This document shows, piece by piece, positions 2,718 to 39,197 of a stretch of 45,916 nt of DNA (the stretch's first letter is position 1; the number at the start of each line of letters is the position of its first letter). Where the stretch lies: the NCBI GenBank assembly GCA_011046395.1, contig DSAQ01000053.1, positions 1 to 45,916 of the forward strand. Direction: 5' to 3'. A program made the position numbers and the translations under genes. Source of the stretch: Pseudomonadota bacterium (lineage in GTDB: Bacteria; Desulfobacterota; QYQD01). The notes under the pieces are model-generated. The model was not told the origin of the DNA and ran no database searches. It was given only the letters and a program-made list of their open reading frames with translations.

Positions 2718-4058
2718 TTAGGTCGCTACCAGCTCTCCGACCAAATCATAAGGATGGGCCTCGGTGATCCGGACTGAAGCGATCTGGCCGATTTCCGTCT
2801 GACCGCTTGCGATATAAACCTGCCCGTCTATATCCGGGGCCTGAAAAACAGCCCGGCCCTTTAAGAGAAGTTCTGTTTCATCGCTCAGGCCTTCAACCAG
2901 TACCGGGATTATCTTCCCGACCCGGGAGCGGTTTATGGCCAGAGATATGGCCTGTTGCGCCTTGAGTATTTTTTTCTGCCGCTCCCTTTTTACCTTTTCC
3001 GGCAATTGGCCGGGCAACCGGCCGGCTACCGTCCCATCTTCCGCTGCATAGGGAAAAACCCCTACGTGCTCAAAGCGCGCCTCTTTGACAAGTCGCAGCA
3101 ATTTCTGGAATTCTTCCCCGGTCTCACCGGGAAATCCCGCTATAAGTGATGTGCGGAGCGCAGCCCCGGGTAATTTGCGGCGGATTTTTTCTATCAAGGC
3201 ATAGATATAATCCTGATCGTAAGGGCGGCGCATAAGTCTGAGGATGCGCGGACTTATATGCTGGATGGGAATATCGAGGTATGGGCATATCCGCGGCTCT
3301 GAGGCCATTAATTCCAGGAGTTCATTATCAATAGCAGTAGGATAGAGGTAAAGCAACCGAATCCAGTCTAAACCCGGAATAGTAAGCAGCTTCTTCAGCA
3401 GATCGGTCAGGCCTGTGCCGTCCCCAAGGTCACTGCCATAGGCACTTGTGTCCTGAGCAACCAAGATAAGTTCGCGCACCCCTTCTCCGGCCAGTCGCGA
3501 GGCCTCTGCAAAAACCGAGTCAACCGGACGGCTCCTTAATTTTCCTCTGAGACGCGGGATCAGGCAGAAGCTGCAGCGATGGCCACATCCTTCAGCAATC
3601 TTCAGATAAGCAGTATAAAAAGGCGTGGTGCGTCTCCGCGGGGTATATTCATCCATAATAAAACAGGATCTGCGCGGTAAGGAGAGCGGCTGAACCAGGC
3701 CATCTTTGAGACTGCGCAGCACCTCTCCTATATTCTGGAAACCATCTGTACCGATAAAGACGTCAACTTCAGGAAGGAGTTTTATCAGTTCCTTGCCATA
3801 GCGCTGAGGGAAGCAGCCGGTTACGACCAGGTATCTTAAGCTGCCTCTCTTCTTGTTCTCAGCAAGGGCCAAAATAGTTCCGATGGATTCTTCCACGGCC
3901 GGCTGGATGAAGGCGCACGTATTTATAATTATGACCCCGGCCTCTTTCTCCCTGGAGGTAATCTCATAGCCGGCGGCTATCAGCACGCCCAGCATGACCT
4001 CGCTGTCCACCAGGTTTTTGGGACAGCCGAGACTGGTTATGAAAACTGACTCAGGCAT
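2718..4058 (-). CDS. rimO: Ribosomal protein S12 methylthiotransferase RimO
   Basis: SLGCPKNLVDSE N-terminus, radical-SAM CxxxCxxC (CGHRCSFC), C-terminal TRAM domain with APDIDG. Confidence 0.93.
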   Translation of the reverse strand: MPESVFITSLGCPKNLVDSEVMLGVLIAAGYEITSREKEAGVIIINTCAFIQPAVEESIGTILALAENKKRGSLRYLVVTGCFPQRYGKELIKLLPEVDVFIGTDGFQNIGEVLRSLKDGLVQPLSLPRRSCFIMDEYTPRRRTTPFYTAYLKIAEGCGHRCSFCLIPRLRGKLRSRPVDSVFAEASRLAGEGVRELILVAQDTSAYGSDLGDGTGLTDLLKKLLTIPGLDWIRLLYLYPTAIDNELLELMASEPRICPYLDIPIQHISPRILRLMRRPYDQDYIYALIEKIRRKLPGAALRTSLIAGFPGETGEEFQKLLRLVKEARFEHVGVFPYAAEDGTVAGRLPGQLPEKVKRERQKKILKAQQAISLAINRSRVGKIIPVLVEGLSDETELLLKGRAVFQAPDIDGQVYIASGQTEIGQIASVRITEAHPYDLVGELVAT

Positions 4059-4063
4059 CGGTA

Positions 4064-5029
4064 TTAGTAAAATACAGGGGCAAAGGAGTGAACAGTCTTT
4101 TGATCAATGGTCTGGAACATAATGTAGGCATAGGAGACTATGATAGCCACGGCTGCCAGCACAAAATAAGGCGCTGTCTTCTCCTGTATTCCAATACTCC
4201 CCTCTTCCCACCCTTTATTCTCCCGTAATAAGGAGATGAAATTATATATGACATAACATTCTACTGCAAAAGGCGGGAACCCGAGATAGCCGGCAATGGG
4301 CATCTCAAACACTTTAAACTGTTCCACAAAGGGCACGGTATATACCCACTTGCTCCCGGCCCAGAAATTCCACAGCTCCCAGAATACGCCGCAGATGAAT
4401 CCAGCCGTAAGCAGGAGAGAGAATTTGCGGAGAGAGCCTTGCTGCCAGTCGCGCATTAACGACCGGCCGCCAAAGTGATGATTTATCGGCTCCAGAAGAA
4501 AAACGAAACAGCCCCAGACCAACGGGAAAAAGTATTGCGGCCAGATGACCGGCAGGATGAAAAAGGCCAGGCCTAAAAGTATAAACGGGCCATACCAACT
4601 TTTGGTCGGAGAAAGTGGCCGAATGTGCCTCTTCTTGTAGAGACCGGCTGCCTCCAGAAACTCTGTGGTTTCAAAAAGGCCAGGCAGTACCGTACCATAG
4701 GCTACAAAATAACCCAGCCAGCGCAGCCAGCGGATATCTATTATCCTGACATAATACCAGTTTTTGATATAAATGTTAAAGGCCTCGAAGATGAGCCAGA
4801 TAAAGACTGACCAGGGAACAAGTAAAAGAAACTCGCCAGTACGATCTACGAGAAGGGAATTCCCCTTATATCGATAAACCAGGCCATCGATCAGCAGGAT
4901 GTACGGCCACCAGGCAAAGATGTAAAAAAGCGAATAGACTGGCTCAGTCCTGGAAATAAGCAACATAGAGGAAACAGCCAGAATTATCAATCCCAGGTAG
5001 GCGTGTGCAGGCAATTTAGCCGTAGCCAT
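4064..5029 (-). CDS. Conserved integral membrane protein of unknown function
   Basis: 321 aa, 8-9 TM segments; two related segments (FEAFNIYIKNWYY and WELWNFWAGSKWVY...FEMPIAGYLGFPPF). Ends 5 nt before rimO. Confidence 0.75.
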   Translation of the reverse strand: MATAKLPAHAYLGLIILAVSSMLLISRTEPVYSLFYIFAWWPYILLIDGLVYRYKGNSLLVDRTGEFLLLVPWSVFIWLIFEAFNIYIKNWYYVRIIDIRWLRWLGYFVAYGTVLPGLFETTEFLEAAGLYKKRHIRPLSPTKSWYGPFILLGLAFFILPVIWPQYFFPLVWGCFVFLLEPINHHFGGRSLMRDWQQGSLRKFSLLLTAGFICGVFWELWNFWAGSKWVYTVPFVEQFKVFEMPIAGYLGFPPFAVECYVIYNFISLLRENKGWEEGSIGIQEKTAPYFVLAAVAIIVSYAYIMFQTIDQKTVHSFAPVFY

Positions 5030-5145
5030 GATTTTCCCTTATGTTTTTATGTTTATCTCACCGACCGCAGACTGTCAACGTTTTTGACTAAAAGCGTCAA
5101 AGGCCATGTTGAATGTCTCTCGCTTTTACAGTATATTGCCATATC

Positions 5146-5384
5146 GTAACTACTCAGGTTCAAAGTTCCAAGGTTCACGGTTCAAAGTTAGAGAGCGAAG
5201 AATGCGGAGTTTATCCGGTTTTTGCAACCTGTCTGCCGACAGGCAGGTACGCCAAGCGGTCTTGCACGGAAGTCCAGAGCGAACTCTATGTCGCCTTGGA
5301 TAAAGAGAATGGTTCACCGTGCACCGTTCTGTGTTTTGTTAACCCTGAACCCTGAACTTTGAACCTGACAACCTGAGTAGTTAC
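5146..5384. mobile_element. MITE with GTAACTACTCAGGTT terminal inverted repeats and 8-bp target duplication
   Basis: Perfect 15-bp TIRs at 5146-5160 and 5370-5384; flanks GCCATATC (5138-5145) and GACATATC (5385-5392), 7/8 identical; heptamer arrays inside both ends. Confidence 0.85.
5201..5307 (+). pseudogene. Internal fragment of a four-helix-bundle (23S rRNA IVS / Avd-like, TIGR02436-type) gene, interrupted by a 20-bp palindrome
   Basis: Removing CCTGTCTGCCGACAGGCAGG (5228-5247) restores the frame NAEFIRFLQ-YAKRSCTEVQSELYVALDKE, the recognisable core of that family. Confidence 0.75.
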
Positions 5385-5476
5385 GACATATCAAAATATT
5401 AGGCGTTCCTTACTGAAAGCCGAGGGCTGATCGCTGAATGCTTAACCCATATTATCCTCTTTGGGGGCTCACATAG

Positions 5477-7216
5477 ATGAAGGTTATTCTGGCCAAGAAG
5501 GCGGGGTTTTGCATGGGCGTAAGAAGGGCCATGGATACTGTGCTGGCCGCGGTCAAAGAAAAATCCGCCGCAGGCGGACCTATATCCACTTTTGGCCCTC
5601 TTATTCACAACCAGCAGGTCCTGGATTTGCTGGCTGCTAAAGGCGTCTCCGTGGTCAGGAGCGTCGGTGAGATCAAAGGTGGCACGGTAGTCATTCGGGC
5701 CCATGGCATCCCTCCTCAGCAAAAAGAAGCTATCCTGCAGACCGGCGCACAGGTAATAGATGGCACCTGCCTGCGGGTTATAAAGGTTCAAACCATTATC
5801 CGCCGCTTTGCCCGCAGAGGATATCGAGTAATCATCGTTGGCGACCAAGGGCATCCGGAGGTATTGGGACTCCTTGGTTTTGCCGGAGGCCAGGGCCTCT
5901 TAATAAGCAGCAAGAGCGATATTGCCGGACTCCCCAAACTGGACAAATACATCGTTGTGGCCCAGACTACGCAGGATGAAAACCTTTTTAACGAGATCGC
6001 CTCGGAAATCACCTCAAAATATCCAGGGGGCCAGATATTTAATTCTATCTGTCATTCAACCCACGAACGGCAGGCCGAGGTTCTTGAACTCTGTAAAGAA
6101 GTTGAGGCCGTTGTTGTAGTGGGTGGCAAGGAAAGCGCAAATACAAAAAGACTGGCTCAAATTGCAGAAGAGGCCGGGTTAAAAGCCTACCATATCGAGA
6201 CAGAAAACGATTTGGATTTAAAAAAGATGTCTGGTTTCAGCCGGGTGGCCGTTACGGCCGGGGCATCGACCCCCAACTGGATAATCAACCGGGTTGTAAG
6301 CAAACTGGAAAGCGTAAAGGGTAAACAGGAAAGCACCCTTAAGGCTACGGCATATACATTCTTTCGCTTTCTTCTGGAAAGTAACCTTTATATCAGCCTC
6401 GGGGCAGGATTCCTCGCTTATGCCTCTCTCAAGTTACAGGGAATAAAAGGAACCTTACCATATTTATTCATTGCGGCCGCTTATATCTATGCCGTCCATA
6501 ATTTGAATCATTTTACAGACAAAGAAGCAGACGCCTTTTCCGAACCCGGACGGGCTGTATTCTTCGCTAAACATGAAAGACTTATCCTTTTATTATCTCT
6601 CCTGGCCGCTGCCTTTGCCCTTTCTCTATCTCACTCCCTGGGTCTATTTCCGTTTCTCTTCCTGTTTTTTATTTGCATCCTGGGGACATTGTACGGAGTT
6701 AAAATTATTCCCGATTTTTTAAGCCCTATTATTCCCCTCCGTCGATTGAAAGACATACCAGGATCCCGGACATTATTTATAGCCCTGGCCTGGGCGGCAG
6801 TTGCGGCTTTTTTGCCTGCCTGGAACTCAGGCCAGGGGTTCACGCCGGGCCTTATCGCGGCCTTCCTCTTTGTCCTTGCCTTTGTCTTCGTGCGTTCGGC
6901 GCTCCTGGAAGTATTTGATGTCCAGGCTGACCGTATGTTCGGACGAGAAACACTGCCTATTTTAATCGGAGAGAGGTCAACGCTTACCCTGCTGAAGGGA
7001 CTTATAGCCTTTATGGTTATCCTCCTCGCGGCTTCTTCCTTCCTCGGATATGTTACCACGGTCGGCCTCTGGCTGACCTTACCGGTGTTATCTATGGCCG
7101 GATGCATTGTCCTTTTCGAAAAGAACTACTTGCGACGGGGAGTAAAATTAGAATTCCTGATTGAAAATAACTTTGTTCTGGCCGGCCTGGTAAGCTATCT
7201 ATGGGCGCATTTCTGA
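5477..7216 (+). CDS. ispH: 4-hydroxy-3-methylbut-2-enyl diphosphate reductase IspH fused to a C-terminal UbiA-like prenyltransferase domain
   Basis: IspH motifs GFCMGV, PLIHN, IRAHG, DGTC, HPEV, AQTT, SIC, SANT, GASTP. The last ~290 aa are multi-TM with Asp-rich motifs NHFTDKEAD and EVFDVQAD...GRETLP. Confidence 0.9.
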   Translation: MKVILAKKAGFCMGVRRAMDTVLAAVKEKSAAGGPISTFGPLIHNQQVLDLLAAKGVSVVRSVGEIKGGTVVIRAHGIPPQQKEAILQTGAQVIDGTCLRVIKVQTIIRRFARRGYRVIIVGDQGHPEVLGLLGFAGGQGLLISSKSDIAGLPKLDKYIVVAQTTQDENLFNEIASEITSKYPGGQIFNSICHSTHERQAEVLELCKEVEAVVVVGGKESANTKRLAQIAEEAGLKAYHIETENDLDLKKMSGFSRVAVTAGASTPNWIINRVVSKLESVKGKQESTLKATAYTFFRFLLESNLYISLGAGFLAYASLKLQGIKGTLPYLFIAAAYIYAVHNLNHFTDKEADAFSEPGRAVFFAKHERLILLLSLLAAAFALSLSHSLGLFPFLFLFFICILGTLYGVKIIPDFLSPIIPLRRLKDIPGSRTLFIALAWAAVAAFLPAWNSGQGFTPGLIAAFLFVLAFVFVRSALLEVFDVQADRMFGRETLPILIGERSTLTLLKGLIAFMVILLAASSFLGYVTTVGLWLTLPVLSMAGCIVLFEKNYLRRGVKLEFLIENNFVLAGLVSYLWAHF

Positions 7217-7217
7217 A

Positions 7218-7327
7218 CATGCATAGCGAGCGCTAACCCCGCTGCTTGCAGCGGGGTTAGCGAGCGAATACGATGTATTTTACCTTGCATACGGAGATTC
7301 CCCGTAGCTTGCTGCGGGGAGCTTCAA
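7218..7327 (+). mobile_element. IS200/IS605-type non-autonomous palindromic element, copy 2
   Basis: Follows TGAA (7214-7217), which contains the ispH TGA stop. Two hairpins, CCCCGCTGC-TT-GCAGCGGGG and CCCCGTAGC-TT-GCTGCGGGG; ends TCAA. Confidence 0.82.
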
Positions 7328-7344
7328 TTGCTTACCGGATGCCT

Positions 7345-7363
7345 GACTTTTTACGAAGCCACC
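7345..7363 (-). repeat. Solitary end of the GATG..TCGTAAAAAGTC MITE family
   Basis: Reverse complement GGTGGCTTCGTAAAAAGTC matches the ends at 10502, 15295/15427 and 45803. Confidence 0.6.
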
Positions 7364-7364
7364 T

Positions 7365-7559
7365 TTAATGATACACTCCGGTTTCATTGTCGGATGACAG
7401 AAAATAATAGATCTGCAGCACATGTGTATAGCAGACCCGCTCTCTCCAATTAGCGCAGCGCTGCTTTATACTATCCCATTGGAAAAATACGCAATCGACA
7501 CAGGGGGATTCGCCTTCGGCTGTCTTAATCATCCGTTGTCCCTTAGCTACATCCATCAT
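7365..7559 (-). CDS. Small Cys-rich hypothetical protein
   Basis: 64 aa with CxxC...C...C; AGGTGA Shine-Dalgarno-like motif 7 nt upstream of the ATG. No recognised family. Confidence 0.4.
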   Translation of the reverse strand: MMDVAKGQRMIKTAEGESPCVDCVFFQWDSIKQRCANWRERVCYTHVLQIYYFLSSDNETGVYH

Positions 7560-7823
7560 GTCATATTCACCTGTTAAATGATATGCATCAAGGTATTCCG
7601 CAGTCTCTTATTTTTATTATCGGACAAGACGGTCCTCCCCTTGAAAATTTCAGTACAAGTTGACCAACTATTGCTTATATGAAGCAATTACTTTTATTTC
7701 TATAAAGAGTTCTTGCCTTGCCCTTTAAAAAATGATAGTTATTTTTTATTATTTATGTACGATTAAAATAATACCGATTTATTGAATTATATTTAATAAC
7801 ATAGGTAAAAAGGAGGAAGACAA

Positions 7824-8405
7824 ATGGCAAAGAGAAATTTGTACTATAGTCTGTCTTTTTTATTGGCAATAATAGCGATTTTTCTTATGTCTTGCTGTGC
7901 CAAGAGAGTCAGCGTCTCTGAAGAAGAAGCGGCTAAAACACCAGAGACCGTTGCGCCCGCACCAAAACCAGTAGAGACCGTTGCACCTAAACCCATGGTT
8001 GAAGAAGCTATGCCCACCACCGAGGCGCTTAAAGAAGAAGTCCTCGCGATGGCAGAGGGCCGAACCTCGGCTGGTCTGTTACCGGTTTACTTTGATTTTG
8101 ATAAGTATAATATGCGTAGTGACCAGACCTCAAGACTGGATCAGAATGCCAAATGGCTGAAGAAAAATCCTACGGCCAAAATACGCATCGAGGGTAATTG
8201 CGACGAAAGAGGCTCAAACGAATATAACCTGGCCCTGGGCGAGCGCAGGGCAAACAGCGTCCAAGAGTATTTAACAAACATGGGCATTGCTCCTGAGCGC
8301 ATAGAAACCCTAAGCTACGGGGAAGAAAGACCGCTTTGTTTTGAGCACGACGAAGAATGCTGGGGTAAAAATAGACGTGCTGACCTTGTCACGATAAGAA
8401 AATAG
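7824..8405 (+). CDS. pal: Peptidoglycan-associated lipoprotein (OmpA-like C-terminal domain)
   Basis: AGGAGG SD, signal peptide with lipobox-like Cys, Pro/Glu-rich linker, VYFDFDK, IEGNCDERGSNEYNLALGERRA, SYGEERP, NRRA. Confidence 0.93.
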   Translation: MAKRNLYYSLSFLLAIIAIFLMSCCAKRVSVSEEEAAKTPETVAPAPKPVETVAPKPMVEEAMPTTEALKEEVLAMAEGRTSAGLLPVYFDFDKYNMRSDQTSRLDQNAKWLKKNPTAKIRIEGNCDERGSNEYNLALGERRANSVQEYLTNMGIAPERIETLSYGEERPLCFEHDEECWGKNRRADLVTIRK

Positions 8406-15476: not shown

Positions 15477-15615
15477 GTATCCGTTCACCGTTCACCGTTC
15501 ACCGAAAAAGACGTTTTCGTGTTTTTCACGGACAACGGTGGCCGAATAACGGAAATTTTGACCAAGGCAACCGTGTTGCCGTGACAACGGTGAACTGATA
15601 ACGGTGAACGGATAC
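15477..15615. mobile_element. MITE with GTATCCGTTCACCGTT terminal inverted repeats
   Basis: Perfect 16-bp TIRs (15477-15492, 15600-15615) and CCGTTCA heptamer runs; 33 nt identical (inverted) to 31353-31385. No clear target duplication. Confidence 0.75.
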
Positions 15616-31352: not shown

Positions 31353-31430
31353 GTATCCGTTCACCGTTATCAGTTCACCGTTGTCCGTAAGAACCTGAAA
31401 AGCTTTTTTCGGTGAACAGTGAACGGTTAC
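31353..31430. mobile_element. MITE of the GTA(A/T)CCGTTCAC family with 8-bp target duplication
   Basis: TIRs GTATCCGTTCACCGTT / GTAACCGTTCACTGTT (14/16); flanks TATTTCAG (31345-31352) and TATTTCAT (31431-31438). Confidence 0.8.
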
Positions 31431-38850: not shown

Positions 38851-38910
38851 TTTGATCCCCTTTAAGTGGTAATTATCATAAGAAAAGAACCTTTACCTAA
38901 GGCATTTGAA

Positions 38911-39021
38911 CATGCATAGCGAGCGCATTCCCCGCTGCTTGCAGCGGGGTTAGCGAGCGAATACGATGCATTTTACCTTGCATACGGAGATTCCCCCACA
39001 GCTTGCTGCGGGGAGCTTCAA
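38911..39021 (+). mobile_element. IS200/IS605-type non-autonomous palindromic element, copy 3
   Basis: Follows TGAA (38907-38910); CATT-CCCCGCTGCTTGCAGCGGGG left hairpin; slightly mutated right hairpin; ends TCAA. Lies between divergent glgE and glgM. Confidence 0.82.
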
Positions 39022-39197
39022 TTTGTGGCAGAGTAAAGCCCGAAAAGATCAAAAAACGGGTTCTTAAAAACCTGTAACCTGTATGGTTTAAAATAGCGTA
39101 AAATAGGCACAAAAGTCAAGTTAGGGCAGGATGCGATAAAGCAACCAACGATAAAAAGTACTTGAACTTCTCTCTTGAACGTGCCAAATACTCACCC

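Follow-up and report, generated by a model that had tools for sequence, protein, structure and literature searches.

What is the short, highly structured stretch that lies between a membrane-protein gene and ispH in the DNA analysed here, and how did it get there? The stretch (positions 5138-5392) consists of terminal inverted repeats (TIRs) that enclose arrays of heptamers, which in turn enclose a piece of a gene for a four-helix-bundle (4HB) protein interrupted by a 20-nt repeat. The window, i.e. the whole 45,916-nt stretch, is contig C3 of the draft genome G000 (261 contigs, 2.73 Mb). The 239 bp at window positions 5146-5384 are very probably a gutted, non-autonomous transposon of the IS66 family (ISBst12 group), that is, a miniature inverted-repeat transposable element (MITE) or, more exactly, a mobile insertion cassette (MIC). 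What is new relative to the papers searched is its cargo, a 4HB gene (or a sister gene of the GxxExxY type) between inverted arrays on IS66-type ends. This link between cargo and vehicle was not found in the full texts searched, and the exact end sequence was returned from unrelated papers only.

Structure of the element

The element and its target-site duplication (TSD) comprise the following features, where RBS denotes the ribosome-binding site.

5138-5145, unstranded: left TSD copy, 8 bp, GCCATATC
5146-5160, plus strand: left TIR, GTAACTACTCAGGTT, with the 12-nt core GTAACTACTCAG, an IS66/ISBst12-type end
5157-5189, plus strand: left heptamer array, units GGTTCAA/AGTTCCA/AGGTTCAC/GGTTCAA; the same array lies 5' of the intact gene in genomes G002 and G007
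5190-5202, plus strand: remnant of the RBS and start-codon region of the cargo gene, AGAGAGCGA..., with the first internal deletion directly 3'
5201-5227, plus strand: 4HB fragment part 1, NAEFIRFLQ, full-length codons 61-69; an uninterrupted version is present in G004:C115
5228-5247, plus strand: 20-nt mobile hairpin, CCTGTCTGCCGACAGGCAGG, inserted later and without target duplication
5248-5307, plus strand: 4HB fragment part 2, YAKRSCTEVQSELYVALDKE, codons 70-89, 98.3% identical to full-length positions 260-319
5308-5340, plus strand: filler in place of the 3' third of the gene (second deletion), 33 bp, without match to the full-length element
5341-5369, plus strand: right heptamer array, units AACCCTG/AACCCTG/AACTTTG/AACCTGAC, the inverse of the left array
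5370-5384, minus strand: right TIR, AACCTGAGTAGTTAC
5385-5392, unstranded: right TSD copy, 8 bp, GACATATC, with one substitution relative to the left copy (7/8)

GTAACTACTCAGGTT and AACCTGAGTAGTTAC form a perfect 15-bp inverted repeat, and the coordinates given for it and for the 7/8 duplication in the initial annotation of this DNA were confirmed, as were the inverted arrays and the 4HB frame cleanly split by the 20-mer without duplication. No transposase is present inside the element, nor any open reading frame (ORF) with a family match. Comparison by blastn with the 467-bp full-length copy described below resolved the window element into four aligned blocks.

Block 1: element positions 1-57, full-length positions 1-57
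Block 2: element positions 52-75, full-length positions 229-252
Block 3: element positions 103-162, full-length positions 260-319
Block 4: element positions 203-239, full-length positions 431-467

The first internal deletion removes full-length positions 58-228. A degenerate third array unit inside the filler, GGTTCACCGTGCACCGTT, is the third copy of repeat family D1, and identical filler is found in the G004:C115 copy. A repeat finder reported a 59-nt inverted pair at 78% complementarity together with several perfect sub-pairs, and the 255-nt stretch folds as RNA at -107.3 kcal/mol (z = -8.8), with none of 200 shuffles as good.

Occupied and empty sites upstream of ispH

The orthologous locus upstream of ispH was recovered in all seven genomes of the genus. 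It is filled in two of them, G000 and G003, the G003 copy being 97% identical and including the hairpin. The empty site that had been suggested as a check upstream of ispH exists in G001, G005 and G006, where a single GCCATATC (GCCGTATC in G005) runs straight into AAAATA. In G002 and G004 some 330 bp including the target site are missing and a 13-bp spacer is present instead; this allele was also recovered from the metagenome, on a 15.5-kb contig and on one contig of an RNA library. The metagenome furthermore contained one weak joint from 5139 to 5387, skipping 5140-5386. Discordant flanks begin exactly at 5146 (5143 in run X1) and at 5384 in 3-8 contigs from each of three DNA runs, and the summed depth reached 270-1060 over the arrays compared with 14-17 over the flanks. 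These figures come from runs none of which contained half of the sampled words, the RNA-library run (X19) comprising five contigs only.

Whole copies and their cargo

Searching 61 related genomes with the 239-bp sequence gave matches in 22, including all seven other members of the family. Intact elements of 467 bp, with ends and arrays as in the window element, are present at G002:C109:5650-6116 and G007:C25:8097-8563. The former is flanked on both sides by attataaa, a perfect TSD, and the latter by a 7/8 duplication. This whole form holds an RBS and an intact 130-codon 4HB ORF whose stop codon lies inside the right array, and further intact TIR-bounded copies occur among public contigs of metagenome-assembled genomes (MAGs). 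The expectation that intact 4HB genes would be found between such TIRs was thereby borne out.

The full-length protein matches PF05635 (4.8e-29, 101 bits against a cut-off of 33.8) and TIGR02436 (3.4e-28, 98 bits against a cut-off of 24). The proposal that the repaired window peptide belongs to this family held only indirectly. Neither the 22-aa frame (5248-5313) nor the 80-aa ORF (5113-5355) of the window had a Pfam or NCBIfam match, whereas the peptide read across the hairpin is identical at 27 of 30 positions to residues 61-90 of the matching full-length relative. In combination, these results identify the fragment as a remnant of a PF05635/TIGR02436 member, not a gene. Among 12 intact ORFs, the ratio of non-synonymous to synonymous substitution rates (dN/dS) was 0.04-0.23 in 64 of 66 pairs, the sequences being kin and not independent; purifying selection of this order (dN/dS about 0.1) suggests that the cargo protein serves the element or the host.

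Copies and subfamilies in the same genome

Within the 2.73 Mb of G000 the exact 12-mer GTAACTACTCAG was counted 15 times, against no occurrence of the same 12-mer written backwards. Twelve short elements (111-254 bp) bounded by it, plus solo ends, lie at unrelated loci. Five of the twelve have perfect 8/8 TSDs, one has a perfect TSD after a 1-nt shift and three, the window copy among them, have TSDs matching at 7/8, which places nine of the twelve at 7/8 or better. This count leaves out four long-range TIR pairs, C5:1683-4378, C17:15708-18305, C33:323-2824 and C117:2977-4523 (2 mismatches per end).

Two subfamilies share the one end. Those of type A have GGTTCA arrays, and their interiors are differing deletion remnants of one gene starting MKIERFEDIEAW. 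Type B elements have ACAGAT-type arrays and remnants of a different gene, the whole form of which was found at G006:C11 as a 469-bp element with the perfect duplication aattttct and a 141-aa ORF matching TIGR04256 (GxxExxY, 2.7e-38) and PF13366 (3.7e-39). A 177-bp derivative of type B is present at four loci of G000 with one common deletion junction and 95.5-98.8% identity, and the shared junction indicates that this derivative multiplied after the deletion. Deletion also occurs in place, as judged from a gutted 121-bp copy at G000:C55, which sits at the very attataaa site that holds the whole copies of G002 and G007. The deletion variant of the window is likewise found at another locus, in G004 (C115).

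Elements with the same GTAACTACTCAG end and other arrays (GGCACAA, GGCTGAA, GACTGTA) were observed at loci L093 and L095-L101 of G090, L107 of G051 and L108 of G137. Two copies of a third miniature family are present in the window itself (15477-15615 and 31353-31430), with ends GTATCCGTTCAC / GTGAACGG(A/T)TAC that run into CGTTCAC heptamers. The ends of this third family are a second GTAA-type end; a search allowing one mismatch found nine bounded copies in G000, three of them with 8/8 and five with 7/8 TSDs.

Transposase-bearing elements with the same ends

As compiled in ISfinder, IS66 ends generally begin with GTAA and give 8-bp repeats. Across the phylum, the exact 12-mer GTAACTACTCAG was found in 51 of 301 genomes, with up to 119 copies (G090). 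Six GTAACTACTCAGGC-ended pairs in G208 lie exactly 1580 bp apart and represent copies of an insertion sequence (IS). The two that were fetched have perfect 8-bp duplications (aaataaaa and gaagtatc), and the single 491-aa ORF matches PF03050 (2.7e-48), NF033517 'IS66 family transposase' (2.3e-96), zf-IS66 and DUF6444. Similar IS copies are present in G084 and G128 with the exact 12-mer, and in G137, which holds 30 copies of the end, as a 2.4-kb copy whose end has one mismatch. The window element and the IS copies of G208, G084 and G128 all have ends GTAACTACTCAG(GC). For ISDge4 of Deinococcus geothermalis, a member of the ISBst12 group that was caught transposing, the passages on this IS in PMC12898284 give the ends GTGACTACTCAGCA / GTAACTGCTCAGCA, a 449-aa transposase and an 8-bp direct repeat.

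Since the same 12-14-bp ends and 8-bp TSDs are found on IS66 elements of the ISBst12 group, the vehicle is of a known kind, and the suggestion of an undescribed mobile system is not upheld. The terminal 12-14 nt are near-identical to those of ISBst12-group elements and the target duplication has the same length, but the window element and its 467-bp parent contain no transposase and the parent has instead a 4HB gene between heptamer arrays. A transposase gene with these ends and the 8-bp duplication had been called for, and it was found, as an IS66-family gene, in G208, G084, G128 and G137 though not in the assemblies of this genus. In a plasmid search this type of transposase was common, whereas the 467-bp element had no match.

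Among long-range pairs of ends in other genomes, those at G090:C63 and C44 turned out to belong to distinct small elements, and pairs of the second end type at G232:C2 and G084:C3 enclose ordinary host genes. A transposase-bearing copy was not found for the GTAASCGTTCAC end type.

The 20-nt hairpin

The 20-mer CCTGTCTGCCGACAGGCAGG at 5228-5247 was initially described as a palindrome. The palindrome is not perfect: the sequence is a hairpin in which a CCGA loop caps a stem of 8 bp, one of them a G.T pair. It splits the 4HB frame after codon 69. At G004:C115 the same deletion variant reads ...TTTTTGCGATACGCC... and is free of the 20-mer, as are all full-length copies. G000 contains three copies of the hairpin (one with a single mismatch), each inside an array cassette. 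G046, a closed genome that belongs to another family of the phylum, has 77 copies at up to one mismatch, compared with none of the control; these have unrelated flanks, occur in tandem and in one case are inserted one in another (e.g. loci L050 and L084 on C1). A duplication was not found at any site, and the exact sequence is common to different families of the phylum. G046 has four Y1_Tnp genes. A link of the hairpin to a REP-type Y1 transposase (RAYT) gene was not found: no hairpin copy lay within 1.5 kb of the four Y1 loci checked (two in G046 and one each in G000 and G003).

On these sequence comparisons, the hairpin is a separate, later insertion, and the arrays and gene behave as one cassette. 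The separately nested layers of the initial annotation accordingly reduce to a cassette and a hairpin. The latter resembles small dispersed repeats (SDRs) and repetitive extragenic palindromic (REP) sequences in being a short hairpin with many dispersed copies, nested insertions and no target duplication. Cyanobacterial SDRs, reportedly treated by Elhai et al. 2008 as very small dispersed hairpin repeats, differ from it in phylum and in sequence.

Comparison with insertion cassettes, intervening sequences and Avd

MICs carry passenger genes between IS ends, as exemplified by MIC231 of the Bacillus cereus group. The elements described here share with MITEs and MICs a short length, IS-type inverted repeats, TSDs, the lack of a transposase, many copies, presumed mobilisation in trans and, in the full-length form, a passenger gene. 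They differ from known MICs in the passenger, which is a 4HB or GxxExxY gene in inverted arrays, and in the IS family, which is IS66 and not IS231/IS4.

Type A elements have a predicted fold in which the ORF lies inside a terminal stem of some 40 bp. In the Coxiella burnetii intervening sequence (IVS), as outlined in the relevant passages of PMC4990558, heptameric repeats lie 5' of the S23p ORF and RNase III excises the IVS; the same passages, from 2016, call the origin of IVSs unclear and list transposition among the hypotheses. Set against that description, the full-length element resembles the S23p-encoding 23S rRNA IVSs of Coxiella burnetii and Leptospira in its PF05635-type ORF of about 130 aa, its heptameric repeats 5' of the ORF and its enclosure in a stem. 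The window element differs in lying in an intergenic leader and not in rRNA, whereas IVSs occupy helix 25 or 45 of a 23S gene and are cut out of the rRNA. The main 23S gene of G000 (C22) is of normal length (2964 nt) and has no large insert. A second, very divergent 23S gene is present at G000:C170:1569-5215. Its identity to the C22 gene is 67-86%, some 860 nt are inserted near the equivalent of C22 gene position 1930, and a contaminant contig of the bin is its most likely source. PF05635 proteins resemble Avd of diversity-generating retroelements (DGRs) in sequence and structure, according to the passages on this point in PMC10053308. Relative to DGRs, the element lacks a reverse transcriptase, a template repeat and a variable repeat, and its full-length protein matches the generic 4HB model TIGR02436.

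Extent of the mechanism and alternative explanations

The reach of the ends and arrays was surveyed among the top 80 genomic homologs found for the G002 protein (identity up to 96%), from MAGs labelled, as submitted, as many phyla. Eight of the nine homologs at 90% identity or more have at least one GTAACTACTCAG end. In a quick tree of 76 sequences, built from few alignment columns after dropping four sequences shorter than 100 aa, all 13 sequences with both ends (at up to three mismatches) fall in one 33-member subtree, with an SH-aLRT support of 91 that is not strong, and none in its 35-member sister subtree. Several loci scored as lacking ends show decayed ends with 7-8-bp duplications (L125 ataattaa, L128 caaaatg). 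A motif-blind scan, requiring a duplication of at least 7/8 beside inverted ends of at least 9/12, picked out 16 of the 80 loci, compared with 6 of 80 in the displaced control. Six of the 16 have the known end, and four, in the sister subtree, have the second GTAA-type end GTAACCGTTCAC / GTAAGCGTTCAC, with TSDs of 8/8 at three loci and 7/8 at the other. Copies of this second end abound in the phylum, a single genome holding as many as 205. Of the 72 homolog loci whose flanks are complete, 53 are flanked by GTTCA-type arrays.

A number of results weigh against an IS66-type vehicle or limit what it can account for. At up to two mismatches, the GTAACTACTCAG end is present on both sides at 10 of the 80 homolog loci and on one side at 6, but on neither side at 64, and three of the twelve G000 copies lack a duplication. 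PF03050 searches over the seven genomes of the genus found no cognate transposase; their only matches were two weak fragments, both in G001. With the transposase of G084 as query there was no match in the eight assemblies of the family and only a weak one, at 26% identity in G008, among the nine of the order. The assemblies searched are drafts, that of G000 without contigs below 2.5 kb, and the absence of a transposase from them is therefore weak evidence. Comparison with the G000 23S gene placed none of the 80 homolog loci within such a gene, and the GxxExxY form of type B has a terminal stem of 14 bp only. Furthermore, the 4HB genes of G000 at C94, C19, C125 and C108 lie between inverted arrays of their own and have no GTAACTACTCAG end, and GxxExxY genes of G000 do likewise. 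Mobilisation by TIRs, put forward in the initial annotation as a reason for the scattered multicopy distribution of 4HB genes, hence explains only part of that distribution. At the C94 (waaA-lpxK) locus one array is kept in all seven genomes of the genus while the interior varies: G000 has a 4HB gene there, G003 and G004 have one of the GIY-YIG type, G005 and G006 have the remnant of a gene, and G001 and G002 have nothing. Such a varying interior at a fixed array implies that cassettes may also turn over by another route.

These end-less cassettes with locus-specific arrays and the exchanged interiors at waaA-lpxK are what would be expected if the array-flanked cassette were the primary mobile unit, moved by another mechanism (recombination between arrays, or homing by nuclease-fold cargo), with IS66-type ends as a secondary add-on in some lineages. 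GTTCA-type arrays are also far commoner than the TIR among homologs. Still, many of the seemingly TIR-less homologs show decayed ends with duplications, the four sister-subtree loci have a second GTAA-type end with duplications of its own, and the sequences with both ends are confined to one subtree; neither a mechanism nor a boundary signature was found for movement without TIRs. We regard this alternative, the main rival of the favoured interpretation, as possible but rather doubtful. The arrays could also be subterminal repeats bound by the transposase, as in the eukaryotic hAT and CACTA elements, and not a feature of the cargo at the RNA level. The array does begin directly after the 12-nt end, with no spacer, in every subfamily, and the end of the third G000 family similarly runs into its array (GTAACCGTTCACCGTTCACCG...), eight of its nine copies having a 7/8 or 8/8 TSD. 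However, arrays are missing from the IS copies that share these ends and encode a transposase, the one 12-nt end is combined with the unrelated arrays GGTTCA, ACAGAT, GGCACAA, GGCTGAA and GACTGTA, and arrays also flank cassettes without ends as well as, in the passages cited above (PMC4990558), the S23p ORF of the Coxiella rRNA IVS. A role of the arrays in transposase binding is thus quite unlikely.

That the stretch is not mobile at all, but is either a 4HB gene that decayed in place or a hairpin or attenuator built to regulate ispH, its inverted repeats being due to chance, would fit its location between a promoter-like site and the ispH start and its very stable fold. Against this stand the same ends at many unrelated loci, each with its own 8-bp duplication, the uninterrupted site in close relatives and the metagenome contigs that diverge exactly at both ends; Rfam, moreover, gave no family at E ≤ 1 on window positions 4000-8000 or on two full-length loci. 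A non-mobile origin is accordingly considered extremely improbable. At the other extreme, IS66-type (GTAA-ended, 8-bp-duplicating) transposases might be the general vehicle of IVS-type cassettes (4HB, GxxExxY and perhaps GIY-YIG) between phyla, including insertion into 23S genes. Classic IVSs would then be such insertions, the arrays would be RNase III stems and the 4HB protein would serve the element, e.g. as a nucleic-acid-binding cofactor, as Avd does for reverse transcriptase. This generalisation is speculative and, in our judgement, unlikely to hold as a whole.

Among the array cassettes without GTAACTACTCAG ends, the GIY-YIG genes at the waaA-lpxK locus are carried by G003:C123 and G004:C112 (loci L117 and L118). 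At G000:C108:7482-8141 a 4HB gene is split by a small GIY-YIG gene that lies between gtcattcccg.../...cgggaatgac repeats, and at G000:C40:8760-8912 a partial 4HB gene abuts the same repeats.

Proposed history of the window element

Under the favoured interpretation of a gutted IS66-type cassette, the whole form is the 467-bp element, made up of a TIR of 12-15 bp, a GGTTCA-type array, an RBS and the 130-aa 4HB gene, followed by the array in inverse orientation and another TIR. An IS66-type DDE transposase acting in trans would cut at the GTAAC... ends and insert the element with an 8-bp duplication. A deletion derivative that retained codons 61-89 only would have landed at GCCATATC in the common ancestor of G000 and G003, and the 20-nt hairpin element would later have inserted between codons 69 and 70. 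In addition, TIR and arrays might form a long RNA stem around the gene, of the same design as an IVS excised by RNase III. Such a stem would possibly make the cassette harmless within host transcripts and set free its own message.

Genes for 4HB "23S rRNA IVS" proteins and for those of the GxxExxY type belong to the most frequent small bacterial multicopy genes of unknown function. The locus and its relatives provide a concrete, testable route of movement, between the ends of a known DDE transposase, for at least two cassette lineages, and the comparative evidence for movement consists of target duplications, empty sites, spreading deletion derivatives and near-identical copies in MAGs labelled as different phyla.

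The ispH leader and further features of the window

Upstream of the element, one further feature was noted.

5109-5137, plus strand: sigma-70-like promoter match TTGAAT-17-TATATT, a consensus match only

Two matches to the sigma-70-like consensus were found against 0.8 expected in shuffles, and the TTGAAT-17-TATATT sequence is kept at the orthologous loci of relatives. The insertion point of the element is 8 bp 3' of the -10 box of this ispH promoter match and, as the element is oriented as ispH, it probably sits in the ispH leader. Apart from the very stable hairpin that it places in that leader, the window copy would be inert. For annotation, such remnants in promoter-proximal leaders should not be counted as regulatory RNAs.

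Directly 3' of the element, window positions 5393-5445 hold a remnant (..TTAGGCGTTCC...GCTGAATGCTTAACC) of a second array cassette. At the same place G001, G005 and G006 have a longer cassette with CGTTCAC heptamers and the right end GTGAACGGTTAC, which is the second GTAA-type end, and G006 has an extra insertion of about 290 bp upstream at the ispH leader. By comparison of these sequences, the ispH leader is an insertion hot spot. The ispH ORF itself (window 5477-7216) encodes 579 aa, the IspH domain being joined to a long C-terminal half that is hydrophobic. At 7214-7329, 38902-39023 and 1857-1927 the window holds a repeat of some 116 bp (…GCGAGCGCTAACCCCGCTGC…CCCCGTAGCTTGCTGCGGGGAGC…); it has 56 blastn matches genome-wide and is nested in a type B element in G005:C36.

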